NCBI GenBank assembly: GCA_963693365.1
Contig: CAVNZM010000008.1
Location: 2,360,763 to 2,424,762, forward strand
From: Amoebidium appalachense
Lineage: Eukaryota > Protista > Ichthyosporea
DNA: 64,000 nt
Direction: 5' to 3'
The notes beneath the pieces are model-generated. The model had not been told where the DNA came from. It did not search any database and saw only the letters and a list, made by a program, of their open reading frames with translations. Made by a program: the position numbers and the translations under genes. Below are positions 8,401 to 20,400 of the stretch, one piece after another; position 1 is the first letter of the stretch, and each line of letters opens with the position of its first letter.

Positions 8401-11400
8401 AGAGAGAGAGAGAGAGAGAGAGGGAGAGAGAGGGGGAGGGAGAGAGAAAGAGAGGAGGGGGGGGGGGGGGGGGGGGGGGGGGGGGGGGGGGGGGGGGGGG
8501 GGGGGGGGGGGGCGGCATGGGTGGATAAAACAGAAATAAAAAAGAAACAGAACGAAAAACGGAACGGAGCAAAAAAAAAAAAAAGGAGGACGACGACACG
8601 AAAAAAAACATTAGAAAAGGAGGAAGGCAAAGAGGGAAAAAAAAAAAAAAAAAAAAAAAAGTTGGGTTGTGAGTTCGAAGAAAAAGAACATTCCCCAGCC
8701 GAGGCTTGAACTCGGAACCTTCGCGTCACATACTGTCTATAAGCACGACGCGCTAACCGATTGCGCCACTGGGGACCATGAGCGGGACGGTGGTGATGTA
8801 AGTGGTGGGGGAGGTGGGGTTGATTGTGGTGATGGTGGTGGTGGTGGGGGGGGGGGGGGGGGGGGGGGGGGGGGGAGGGGGGGGGGGGGGGGGGGGGGGG
8901 AAGCTCACATCCAGCCAAAAACAAAACTATTAACCAAAACTATCAACGATGCACAATGTTACAAATAAACCACTATGAACAAACCAACAGCGTTGCCCCA
9001 CATACACAATACTTCTAACGCTTTTTTTTTTTTTTTTTTTTTTTTTTGGGGGGGGGGGGGGGGGGGGGGGGGGGGGGGGGGGGGGGTTGAGGCTTACGGA
9101 CCAGGCACGAGGCAGCATCCTTTAAAATTTCAATATATATATATACCGTAAACTGCATGCAAAACCATACTACTGGTTGCCCCTAGTTTGTGCTAGTCTT
9201 CTACACAAAGCAAAAGCAAACCAACCAGCCCAGAGCATATGAAGGCAACAGGGGAAACATCCCAAATTCATCACTACCAAAGCACTTTCGTATAGACGAA
9301 ATACTCGAAACTGCACAAGCCGGCTGCGGCATATTCGCTGGAAAAGCAACGTTAAACCAACAGACCGTCAAATTATCAACAACCTTGTCTCAAGAAAACA
9401 ATACCATGATCAAGGCAGGTAGCTATCGAGAAAGAGCAAAACAACCGCAAAACTTTCTACTTCTAAAAACTAAAAAAGCAACGTTAAACAAACAGATCGT
9501 CAAAAAATCAACCTCGTCCAAGAAAACACTACCTACAAACCGCTTCAGAAGTATCATGGTCAAGGCAGGTGGCTATCGAGAAAGAGCAAAACAACCGCAA
9601 AACGTTCTACTTCTAAAAAAGCAACGTTCAACCAACAGACCGCCAAAACAACATCAACCTCGTCTCAAGAAAACACTACCTACAAACCGCTTCAGGAGTA
9701 CCATGATCAAGGCAGGTAGCTATCGAGAAAGAGCAAAACAACCGCAAACTTTCTACCTCTTCTAAATAGTGAACGAGAAATAAGGGGAAACGAAGACTGG
9801 TATTTTGGTATTGAAAAACCAACACAAAAAAAAGCGGGGCAAAAAGGCACAGAACATTTTATGCAACAAGAAAAAAGGGGGGTGTGAATTAGATTAAGAA
9901 GATGAATCAGTGCTGGACGCTTTTAGCCGATTGATCCCGACTTGGAACCCTTAAGCAAAAGTTTCTGGCGTTTTGTAGTCCAAGTGCTCGGCAGCGCCAG
10001 TTCATTCGGCGAGATAACTTTCAGGGGCTGACGTTCGAATGGAGATGGGATGTACGGCGGTTTCCGTGCCGTGTGCTGTGGGGGTGGAGAGGGAACGGGG
10101 GGCAGTGGGGACGTCGCCCGGCAGGTGGAGTTTGCTTTGTCCGCGGTTCCCGATGCACCCTTGGTCGACGCAATCTCAGCTTAAAACGCTTTCGTAGCGG
10201 TGCTTTAAGGCCACTGGTTCTCCTGTCTAGCGTGTAGTCTCGTTCCCCTGGCTGCTCGGCAAGTTTGCGTGGACGGCCGCAGCGCTGTTGGATGCAATAT
10301 ACGGGAAGTGTTAGAAACTCCTCTCCCGACAGGCACACATGCACAGATACCCGAGAAAATAAAAACAAACCAAAAAAATTGGGGGGGGGGGGGGGGGGGG
10401 GGGAGAGCGGGTTTTTAATGGGAAGTTAAAGAGAGTTTAACGGGAAGGCCGTTGAAGTTAAAAGAAAAACAACGTGTCAATGGCACAATCAACGCAAACA
10501 AACCTCAGGCTTCCTGGTAGTGCCAACATTTGAAAGTCCGAAACTCTAAACCCCTATAATTTTTGAAGAGACCACACACACACACACACACACACACACA
10601 CACACACACACACACACACACACACACACACACACACACACACACACACACACACACACACACACACCCTCTTCACCACACACCGGCACACCATCACACT
10701 TGACTCACCTTTGTGGCGATGGCACGGCTGTGGGATGTGTTGCCAGCCTCTGTTATCCTATCCTCTGCAGGGGGTGCAGTGCTTGCCGCGGGTGCTTTTT
10801 TGGGACGTCCCCTTGATCCAGTCTGCTGTGAACAGCAACACGCGCATGTCAGTCTATTTTCGCAACGGAATTAATTCATTAACAAACACAACAAATGAAA
10901 GATCGAATTGCAGCTATGCGGTGAAAGCAACCCTTAGCAACCCCTGACCACATGACCCCCCCCCCCCCCCCCTCTTTCTTCGAAAATAAACAACCCCCCC
11001 CCCCCCTTTCCCGTGTGTGTGCGGGTGCGTGTGTGTGTGTGTGTGAATGTGGCGGGGGGGGGGGGGGGGGGGGGGGGGGGGGGAACCTTACCCCCTTTGA
11101 CGTCGTCCGCTTGTCTGTTCTGTAGTGCCACCTGGGTCCATGGCCTAGGAATCCTGGGAAATGAACAAATACGATAAGTACTATGGAGTTGTTTTTAATA
11201 TTGGCCTGCTATATCTATCTATCTATCTATCTATCTATCTATCTATCTATATATCTGTCCGTCTGCCTGTCTGTCTGTCTGTCCGTCTGCCTGTCTGTCT
11301 GTCTATCGATCTATCTATCTATATATAATATGCAGTCCCCATACCATGCCATGTAAACCCAGTCGATTATACTTTCTATCTATCTATCTATCTATCTATC

Positions 11401-17400: not shown

Positions 17401-20400
17401 CAACCGACAAGTAACACAAGCCGAAAAAAACCAGTGACAAAGGAAACAACAGGGAATACAAAGGAAACAACAGGCACAGCTAAGACAACCTCAGAGCTTT
17501 ATATGCATTCAATAAGGGGACCCGGAGAGAAGAGGATGAGAAAGGGTAATGAAACCCGAAGGGCTTCAACAGCTTTTATACCTGAGCGTTTTGTTGAGTT
17601 GCCATATTGGGATATCGCCGATTGCCTTATACGTCGAAAAGGTGTTGCTAAGTTGCCATATTTGGCAAAGTTGCCATATTTGGCTTCAGCCGGCTGCCTT
17701 ATTTGTCTAAAGGTACCTACCCTTGGGTGTTGGCACAAAAAAAGCACGGCGGCATGAGAAAAGAAATCTTACCCCGTCAACAACAAAACGTTACGAAAGA
17801 GCGGCCGATTGGCTGTTCACGCACCCGCCAACGTACGTCATCGATGTAGAACGTCATCATTCCGAACGATCGTCGATTGAAAGTAAGGTTGTGGTCTCGA
17901 TCCGATGTGTCAGCGATGTGTCGGAATTTGCGCAAAAATCGAAAATAGGGGGTTGAGATCTCGATCACCAGGTGAGGCTCGAACTCACAACCTTCGCGTC
18001 ACATACTGTATATAAGCACGATGCGCTAACCGATTGCGCCACAAGGGAATCCGTCCTCGACCAGAATTTACCAGATTTTGTCCATGTCAACCTCTTCAAA
18101 TGGACTTCAGGAAGAAGGGCTTTCTTGCCGTCTCCCCATGAATCACCTTACCTTTCTACACCCTCTTCTAAGAAAAATTACAAAGGCAAGGTACGGGGAG
18201 ACCAACGGAGGAAGAGAGGGAGGGAGGGAGGGAGAGAAGTGGGGGGGGGGGGGGGGGGGGGGGGGGGGGGGGGGGGGGGGGGGAGGGGTTCACCTTCCCA
18301 AGTCGCACGACCGCACCAGCAGGGAAAGCAGCTCGACACACTGCACATAGGCAAGCTGCCGCCCCTTGGCCAGGCCCGACAGGATGTGGACTGTGTGTGT
18401 GTGTGTGTGTGTGTGTGTGTGTGTGTGTGTGTGTGTGTGTGTGTGTGTGTGTGTGTGTGTGTGTGTATGCGCGCGCTCGCGTGTGCATGTGCATTCGTGA
18501 GTATATGCTGGGGTGCCGCAATGTGCCCTTTCCTACCCACCTGAGGGCTAATGCACCATACATGTTGGTAATCCATGTACCGGGTGGCCTTCAACCAGCA
18601 GAGACATATGCATACACAAACACAATCCTGCATTTTTCTAGGTCCATGATTTGCAATGCAAGTGGAGAGAGTGGTGAACAAGTAAACGGACGGACTTTTC
18701 TCACAAGGGAGTTTTAGAGTCGGTACACAGCATGAGTATGGTCTTATAACTGGCATGCAAAAAAAAATACACGTGAGTATATGTCATAAGTAGCCCACTC
18801 TCAAGGGCTGCAACCGCCCAAGTCATCCACGGTACACGTATTTCACCCATGCAGCTCACACAAGTCTCAACTCAGATTGCAAAAAGGGCGCCGGGGGGGG
18901 GGGGGGGGGGGGGGGGGGGGGGGGGGGGGGGGGGGGGGGGGGGGGGCACATACTCTGCTGTGCAAGCGACGGAGGCTGTGCCGCAGGGTTTGGTGAGCCG
19001 GGCCGGGTCAGATTTTGGGGTGGGCCGGGGCTCACCATGGCTGGGCTACGGGTTGGCTCCACAGACAGCTGTCTTGCCATAACGGGTTTGTTCGATTCGA
19101 GTCCCTGCACGGTCTGGGTTTGGCCCGTGGAGGGAGACGGCTGGCCCGGCCCGCTAGAAGCAGTTCCGGGTCGACCCGGCTGGGCTGCAGCTTGGGCCTG
19201 GTCTTGTGGCGGATAGCCGTTTTGTGGGGCCTGCTGCTTGATGGCTTGCACCAGCAGAGGAATCATGCCCCTCTGCAACACATATTCCCTCTGCATGCAC
19301 ACAGTGCTTGAGAACCGCCGCCTGCCAATTCCTCACAGTCCCCTCATGACCCCCCCCCCCCCCCCCCCCCCCCCCCCCCCAAAAAAAAAAAAAAAAAAAA
19401 AAAAAAAAAAAAACCTCTTCACGGACCATTGCATGGGAAGCTTAATATGGATGGGAGTAAACCAAGGATGACGCAGGATGCTGAAGGTGGTTGTCGGAGA
19501 GGTGCGCCTTTTTTTTTTTTTTTTTTTAGAGGTGTGTGTGTGTGTGTGTGGGGGGGGGGGGGGGGGGGGGGGGGGGGGGGGGGGGGGGGGGGGGGGGGAG
19601 GGGAGGGGAGAAAGAGAGAGAGGGAGGGCGGGAGAGAGGGGGGAGGAGGGGAGGAAGAGAGAGAGAGAGGGGGGGAGAGGCAGAGGGAGGGAGGGGGGAG
19701 GGAGAGAGGGAGAACAGAGAGAGAGGAGAGAGAGAGAGAGAGGCACAGGGGGGGGGAGGGGGAGGGGGGGGGGGGGGGGGAGATGAAGGTGTGTACCTGT
19801 TGGTTGCCTATCTGCACAAAGTCTTTGACAAACTGGTAGAAGGCCTGTGTCTGCGTGCCAAAGTGCACCAGATCACCTTTCTGTAAGACCAAAACTAGGG
19901 TCAGTACAGTGTATGGCTAGGTATACACCCACATCATGGATTTATCAGGCGAATAAACACTGTATGGATTGTCACAAAAAGGCACAAGTCATGAGTTCAC
20001 ACTTGTATTTGGTTTTATCATGTGTGTGAGAGCTATCACAACATCACACCAGGTTTCTTTCGATAACGAATTTGTGATGTAAATGGGTGATGTAAACGGG
20101 TGCATACGGATTTTTCCTCGTGTTAATCTGCCACAAAACTCCGACAGTCGTCTATCTACAACATGTGTGGGTGCGTGGGTGCGCAGGCACATGCACACAC
20201 TTATGTATGTGTGCATGTCCACTTGGGTACGAATTCCAATTGTTCGGCCTCACTCGTACGTGTATAGTCTAGGTGAGTGAAAGTGTATGTATACTTACAC
20301 ATGTACTTTTTAGAGTACATGCAAGCACCCAAATGTGTGTGCATACACCCGTGTTTGAGCACGTGTACGCAAATGGACGTCTCCCTCTACCTGCTGGCTC

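Follow-up and report, generated by a model that had tools for sequence, protein, structure and literature searches.

Organization of the locus

The analysed sequence, a 64,000-nucleotide (nt) stretch of Amoebidium appalachense contig CAVNZM010000008.1 (hereafter the window, with positions counted from its first nucleotide), contained two tRNA-Ile(UAU) genes on the minus strand, enclosing an intron-rich gene whose product has a tyrosine recombinase-like catalytic tail. Copy 1 (8691–8775) and copy 2 (17964–18048) scored 53.6 and 42.9 bits against Rfam RF00005, respectively (gathering score 29), and Rfam placed an 11-nt intron after the UAU anticodon loop in both. With default settings, no tRNA other than these two was called in the 64 kb, copy 1 being reported by ARAGORN and copy 2 by Rfam; the anticodon name given by ARAGORN was wrong because the intron was misplaced. 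Copy 1 was fully paired in every stem (acceptor stem, 7/7 pairs) and was followed by a T5 terminator. The acceptor stem of copy 2 was broken, with four Watson–Crick pairs, one wobble and two mismatches; its T and anticodon stems were perfect. These scores and stem counts bear out a preliminary description of the locus, which had reported two 85-nt intron-bearing copies in the same orientation, one intact and one defective.

The two copies were identical at 74/85 positions, and the similarity ended at the gene ends, beyond which the flanks could not be aligned. Just two of the 11 differences fell within the central 54 nt (scan-corrected P 0.012), while the four T-stem differences formed two compensated pairs. 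Both T-arms therefore derive from working tRNAs, and the pair is a mosaic rather than evenly decayed.

Assembled contigs from four sequencing runs (X2, X8, X9 and X10, among 15 runs with matching sequence) were compared with positions 14300–20000 of the window; such contigs omit rare variants. X2 and X8 were DNA runs, and X8 differed from the window by about 1%. X9 and X10 came from two studies and were taken as RNA because their contigs skip GT–AG introns (none was recorded as RNA).

The whole unit lay in a GT–AG intron (7668–18293, minus strand) of a ubiquitin hydrolase-like gene, for which an upstream host exon gave a below-cut-off match to UCH (E 0.0068). The intron measured 10,626 nt and the copy-to-copy spacing 9,273 nt, leaving 1,353 nt after removal; the spacing and residual intron length of the preliminary description thus agreed with the coordinates. 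An X10 contig joined a cryptic donor at 17581, within the copy 2-proximal end of the enclosed DNA, to the host exon ending at 7667, which provides independent evidence that the two flanks are parts of a single gene. The insertion gives rise to an aberrant host message extending through copy 2; in X8, this donor was mutated.

The recombinase gene and its product

The enclosed gene was read on the minus strand from an ATG at 17165. Five GT–AG joints were present in the X9 and X10 contigs (two of the four runs), which, together with the reading frame, delimited six exons (16894–17165, 16349–16461, 15811–15973, 15334–15491, 15040–15152 and 14421–14530). Joined, these formed an open frame of 286 codons ending at a TAG in exon 6 (14491–14489, codon 287), and the sequence was in frame past the TAG too. 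A second in-frame ATG was located at codon 23 in exon 1. Frameshifts had been suspected in exons 1 and 6 but were ruled out by the RNA joints and by third-position GC, which was 0.60–0.80 in all seven exons and similar in four of five host exons checked. The contigs carried on to 13966 through a junction from 14421, and further exons on the same strand were placed between 9900 and 13966; beyond the observed junction, these are predicted and ambiguous (64,800 open paths). The X9 contig comprised 2,178 nt, of which 1,260 nt were downstream of 14420, a length that fits approximately nine further exons reaching about 9800 under this ambiguous model. The TAG, which lies ten codons past the putative nucleophile and precedes a further ATG by six bases, may be either the true end or an old lesion. 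The ATG following it stood in good context (14491–14480), consistent with readthrough or a two-cistron message.

To classify the product, a profile was built from 84 non-redundant prokaryotic recombinases (246 extracted), and three sub-profiles were tried. The C-terminal sub-profile placed Y241, R244 and H266 on the conserved H, R and H, a result equalled by 4 of 1000 shuffles. By inspection, Y277 lay at the spacing expected of the nucleophile, 36 residues after Y241. Exon 5 (Y241-x-x-R244, H266) and exon 6 (Y277) thus encoded the ordered H/Y-x-x-R, H/W and nucleophilic tyrosine of a tyrosine recombinase tail. The same replacement of histidine by tyrosine is found in HhpA of the Hephaestus Starship, where 35 residues separate Y381 from the nucleophile Y416 (PMC10104507; this and all other published systems are cited from excerpts of the papers). 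Additionally, exon 5 matched phage-integrase clusters in the ESM Atlas (0.97; 21/30 matches). When exon 5 was folded alone, the predicted local distance difference test score was 55 and the predicted template modelling score 0.29, values that refer to a single exon. The catalytic tail is thus real, and there may be a wider likeness to the DUF3435 motif order. The preliminary description had placed a tyrosine recombinase about 800 nt from one tRNA copy, reading away from it. The position was correct (799 nt from copy 2, reading away), and the identity held for the C-terminal half of the active site but not for the frame as a whole.

Database searches had to rely on short queries, so that their negative results are weak. 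Searched singly, exons 4 and 5 found no homologue in a 5.8-billion set limited to longer proteins, and single-exon searches of metagenome and viral contigs and of PDB sequences found none either. Single exons gave one chance match (E 9) and no homologue among phages and plasmids, and Pfam, PHROGs and NCBIfam yielded none on the exons. Four HMMER matches of exon 5 in a 1.84-billion search were rejected as tandem-repeat proteins that scored by summed weak matches.

The putative element end at copy 2

A segment adjoining and entering copy 2 (17859–17969) recurred in other contigs. Positions 17859–17960 were matched by two extra X2 contigs with their own indels, at depths of 29.1 and 31.1 of 95.6, each therefore near single-locus depth. 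The same positions were matched by one extra X8 contig (15.6 of 40.1) and by an X9 contig whose interior differed, divergence setting in before 17859. One X9 contig (17467–17969; depth 22.4) stopped within copy 2, and the next began at 17940 (depth 14.1). With contigs built from 31-letter words, we infer from this break a second locus that would share the element end and differ at 17970, which is tRNA position 67. Furthermore, an X9 contig departed behind 17994 into sequence that we identified by eye as the 5' half (D-arm plus anticodon arm) of a tRNA-Met(CAU). If this contig is the second branch, a tRNA-Met gene carries the same element end. One X2 contig, which began in the copy 1 flank and had a loose end before 17974, was considered as an empty site but was explained by copy 1. 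Another X2 contig, terminating at 17973 (17973–18003), would fit a further, third tRNA-Ile(UAU) gene that combines a copy 2-type T-arm with a different intron.

The putative crossover region was marked by an 11-nt palindrome (17965–17975) centred on 17970, where the X9 contig broke. Beside it, an inverted 11/14 copy of the copy 2 T-arm (17979–17992) was located on the plus strand at 17951–17964 and is a candidate recombinase half-site; a second 11/14 copy followed at 17887–17900 (plus strand). In the 3' flank of copy 1, a perfect 14-nt inverted copy of the copy 2 T-arm was present (8665–8678, plus strand), which matched the T-arm of copy 1 itself at 11/14 positions. The copy 2 T-arm 14-mer had two matches in 64 kb versus 0.02 expected, and three T-arm-like motifs lay within 100 nt of tRNA 3' ends versus 0.03 expected (post hoc). 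The preliminary description had recorded no terminal inverted repeats. Classical ones were indeed absent, but dyad symmetry was present at both tRNA 3' ends.

The T-stems constrained where strands could have been exchanged. Both remained paired if the crossover was placed before position 49 or at positions 66–69, and only the latter yielded a perfect 14/14 inverted repeat at the rebuilt target (0/1500 random flanks exceeded 12/14). Positions 66–69 are a 4-nt run common to both copies and a candidate terminal direct repeat. Further inside the element end, 9-nt direct repeats (TTGCCWTAT; 17599–17702, plus strand) may represent arm-type or promoter sites: four of the seven exact matches in the window lay at 17599–17679, clustered 290–365 nt from the end. 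A 14/15 copy of the element-end motif 17951–17965 was also observed in coding exon 2 (16368–16382), either by chance or as an autoregulatory site. Scanning metagenome contigs for a tRNA motif returned no match.

Interpretation and alternatives

Taken together, the locus probably harbours a tRNA-targeting element. The preliminary description had proposed a tRNA-targeting recombinase element bounded by whole tRNA copies. Its first part has indirect support: the recurring end, the break at position 67, the tRNA-Met contig and the dyads suggest a recombinase element tied to a tRNA 3' end. As for the second part, whole tRNAs are less likely to be the att repeats than a short core at positions 66–69. 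The chances that the two tRNAs form an attL/attR pair, as earlier proposed, appear evenly balanced.

We tentatively favour, with somewhat less than even confidence, an intron-rich, Crypton/Starship-like tyrosine-recombinase DNA element that inserted into a host tRNA-Ile(UAU) gene at the 3' strand of its acceptor. The recurring end, the break at 67, the tRNA-Met contig, the inverted T-arm and the mosaic together argue for a short crossover in this strand rather than for whole-tRNA repeats. Under this model, the recombinase would bind a 14-nt motif that occurs as the T-arm/B-box of the tRNA and, inverted, in the element end, and strands would be exchanged within the shared 4-nt run. Copy 2 (the putative left-hand hybrid site) would consist of host positions 1–67 plus the element end, with its acceptor broken. 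Copy 1 (the putative second hybrid site) would be a near-whole tRNA gene borne at the other end of the element and completed by the last bases and the terminator of the host gene, so that one working tRNA gene survives. Excision would yield a circle, an intermediate that has been proposed but not demonstrated for Cryptons (PMC3212892, PMC13465315, PMC8869645). In the carried copy, two compensated T-arm pairs would keep the fold while weakening the motif, and we speculate that this shields the copy from being cut again.

Several observations weigh against this model. The full prokaryotic profile did not detect the frame as a whole (87/1000 shuffles were as good), and the first-arginine sub-profile failed, not picking R139 or K165 (160/1000). 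The N-terminal sub-profile failed likewise (470/1000). R139 and K165, both encoded by exon 3, are plausibly spaced upstream and may be the first two of the catalytic residues. In the best match of the full profile, which was non-significant, residues 156–185 fell on the N-terminal binding domain, an arrangement that would imply an internal deletion; the first arginine and lysine may thus be R139 and K165 or may have been lost by such a deletion. As the upstream catalytic arginine and lysine were not found, this copy is possibly defective. The best Atlas matches of exon 4 were sulfotransferases (0.92), with low feature overlap and probably by chance. The TAG that cuts the frame was also present in the diverged X8 and the RNA contigs. 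Unlike the element end, the gene body had no extra contigs, and its depth in X2 was about 31, as for host DNA. The X9 break was taken from table edges in a run guessed to be RNA, and the X9 tRNA-Met contig may represent an ordinary tRNA-Met gene sharing approximately 25 nt of T-arm. Contigs of the four runs, which cover only the right junction, contained no empty site or circle, and both DNA runs carried that junction. The dyad tests were chosen after the motif had been seen, and an 11/14 match was reached by 31/1500 random flanks. At the rebuilt target, the acceptor stem retained one wobble and one mismatch, which needs two later mutations. Finally, positions 8776–9150 were host-like, with 23% simple repeats and an observed/expected CpG ratio of 0.3.

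This last point touches the left boundary. Composition shifted from host-like to CpG-undepleted at about 9150–9300, followed by three degenerate tandem units of about 140 nt (9342–9760, CpG-undepleted) downstream of the gene. The host intron-like character of the left 400–500 nt means that the intact copy 1 may be an old tandem neighbour, although a host-like stretch would also be expected had the element captured a tRNA gene together with the DNA upstream of it. An element could accordingly target tRNA 3' ends and have broken copy 2 while ending at about 9100–9300, with copy 1 merely adjacent. The contig evidence from the right end fits this equally, the composition switch falls where its far end would be, and compensated T-stems suit two long-functional paralogues. 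We nevertheless regard it as an unlikely account. A search of 8776–9950 with a narrow pattern found no tRNA 3' end that had been displaced along with a terminator, the neutral intron is identical at 10/11 positions while the T-arm differs at five places, and the copy 1 flank mirrors the T-arm of copy 2 rather than its own.

Another explanation dispenses with tRNA specificity altogether: chance would have placed a Crypton-like element, or a recombinase-derived gene that is long resident or domesticated, between tandem tRNAs, one of which decayed, and gene conversion would have produced the mosaic. The single-copy gene body, the host-like introns, the transcription and the presence in both DNA runs are compatible with this, as are the incomplete active site and the codon differences of X8 before the stop (five synonymous versus three residue-changing, among 40 of its 61 differences), which are too few to separate selection from decay. 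It leaves unexplained why the recurring end stops at a tRNA, why the break falls at position 67 and why there are three T-arm-like motifs, and we consider it improbable.

The earlier form with a long core, in which the crossover falls at positions 7–48 and the element contributes the 3' half of copy 2 and the 5' half of copy 1, accommodates the identical runs of 20 and 21 nt, rebuilds stems equal to those of a 66–69 crossover and explains why the tRNA-Met contig departs exactly where the Ile and Met sequences diverge (position 43), but it is very unlikely, since it predicts no between-locus break at position 67, where X9 breaks, and an inverted repeat of just 11/14 at the rebuilt target.

Further features of the locus

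Around the start codon, a tandem duplication of about 210 nt with 89% similarity (17124–17555) was found by self-BLAST. At 17149–17154, near codon 5 and upstream of the second ATG, X8 showed an apparent 4-nt micro-inversion between short inverted repeats and a one-base insertion. A second open frame of about 165 codons, coiled-coil-like, ran over exons 1 and 2 into exon 3 (17097–15858) and overlapped the recombinase frame. Intron 3 (15492–15810) was covered by a low-depth RNA contig (15501–15768) with open stretches of 47–60 codons and may contain a skipped or decayed exon. Other introns contained local tandem duplications (13024–13542, units of about 160 nt; 11235–11629, units of about 113 nt). 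The downstream exons contained two AT-hook-like motifs (10710–10825 and 10284–10260), the former with a below-cut-off AT_hook match (E 0.032). A stretch with spaced tryptophans (12222–12323), which may be chromodomain-like, had no Pfam match. Outside the host intron, exons at 230–4100 (plus strand) resembled by eye an RGS-domain gene, convergent with the host hydrolase gene.

Comparison with known systems

Prokaryotic tyrosine integrases dock most often at tRNA genes. In the sources consulted, targets described for eukaryotic recombinases are 5S ribosomal DNA (rDNA; PMC11162782, PMC9156397), 28S rDNA and telomere repeats (PMC10871703), microsatellites (PMC8869645) and short motifs, and insertion into tRNA genes is attributed to DDE (Dada) and retro-elements. 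No eukaryotic tyrosine-recombinase element that integrates into tRNA genes was found in the excerpts searched, a scope that excluded Repbase Reports, subscription papers and supplements; four of the sources (PMC13004909, PMC11244446, PMC13565253, PMC11296320) contained no tRNA-targeting case in the parts available. The locus could, in the strongest formulation, represent the first eukaryotic tyrosine-recombinase family that integrates into tRNA genes in the manner of prophages, using the T-arm/B-box as a half-site, cutting the acceptor 3' strand of several isotypes (Ile, Met) and bringing along a recoded, near-whole tRNA gene of its own, which leaves the host with a working copy that has become a poor target. 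We consider this formulation rather doubtful. A eukaryotic case of this kind would mean that prokaryotic and eukaryotic elements have converged on one safe harbour, here under the rules of RNA polymerase III, with an internal promoter and a downstream terminator, and might extend Starship-like enzymes beyond fungi. It would also provide a small, defined system for testing the long-proposed circular intermediate of Cryptons, and a tRNA-specific, eukaryote-adapted integrase would be a candidate safe-harbour tool.

Cryptons (F, S, A and V) are recombinase-only DNA transposons without long terminal repeats and with direct repeats of 4–6 base pairs (bp; PMC3212892, PMC13465315, PMC8869645), and CryptonV is site-specific for microsatellites (PMC8869645). 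The element resembled them in that reverse transcriptase, capsid and long terminal inverted repeats were not detected in minus-strand frames, self-BLAST or exon family scans (plus-strand frames were not family-scanned), and the absence of reverse transcriptase noted in the preliminary description was confirmed within the same scope. The exons scanned had no match to GCR1_C or DUF3504. The word tRNA is absent from PMC3212892 and PMC13465315, and no description of a Crypton that ends in a near-whole RNA gene was found in the sources consulted.

In Starships, which have DUF3435 captains and among which the 5S rDNA-targeting Voyager, Enterprise- and Arwing-family elements are the most relevant, the recombinase comes first, near one end, and reads inward (PMC11162782, PMC9156397, PMC10104507, 10.1101/2020.03.25.007153), as did the gene described here from its ATG 799 nt inside copy 2. 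Starships have short direct repeats of 2–16 bp and can occupy a multicopy RNA polymerase III target, 5S rDNA (PMC11162782, PMC9156397), for which the counterpart here would be a tRNA gene. HhpA shares with our enzyme the replacement of histidine by tyrosine and the distance of about 35 residues to the nucleophile (PMC10104507). The captain of Kirc has a C-terminal extension (PMC11162782, PMC9156397, PMC10104507, 10.1101/2020.03.25.007153), to which the in-frame region past the TAG can be likened, and truncated captains are known (10.1101/2025.11.25.690456). Unlike Starships, the element was small (9.2 kb) and without cargo, as one transcript covered the exons seen. Insertions into 5S rDNA are predicted to destroy the gene (PMC11162782, PMC9156397), whereas an intact tRNA copy remained here. 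DUF3435 (PF11917) had no match on nine and six element exon peptides, pieces of 22–73 amino acids that are too short to exclude it, and Starship recombinases have been reported absent outside Dikarya (PMC11162782).

Among other eukaryotic elements, Dada also inserts into tRNA genes, sometimes of several isotypes, but it uses a DDE enzyme, duplicates 6–7 bp of target, selects A-box/anticodon-stem sites and splits the gene in two (PMC8869645). At our locus, both tRNAs were full length and the enzyme tail was recombinase-like. DIRS, Ngaro and VIPER elements have reverse transcriptase and RNase H, for which no frame or match was present in the exons, and the gene was intron-rich. Endogenous nimaviruses encode spliced, site-specific eukaryotic recombinases that target 28S rDNA and telomere repeats; they are, however, large viral genomes whose target is not tRNA (PMC10871703), and the element contained no viral genes. 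For polinton-like viruses of cryptophytes, the available text reports no tRNA near insertion sites (PMC12220804).

A functional parallel is with prokaryotic prophages, integrative and conjugative elements and archaeal elements, in which the recombinase lies beside an att site, the tRNA 3' end is one of three known sub-sites and an intact tRNA is rebuilt (PMC8371274); pTN3-like integrases supply the 5' part of the tRNA (PMC8371274). In contrast to these, the gene described here was spliceosomal with about 14 introns, lay in a nuclear intron and was flanked by two full-length tRNA copies, and its sequence link to the 84 prokaryotic recombinases was limited to the catalytic tail. By analogy, the element would work like a prokaryotic tRNA-integrating element and be built like a small Starship or Crypton.

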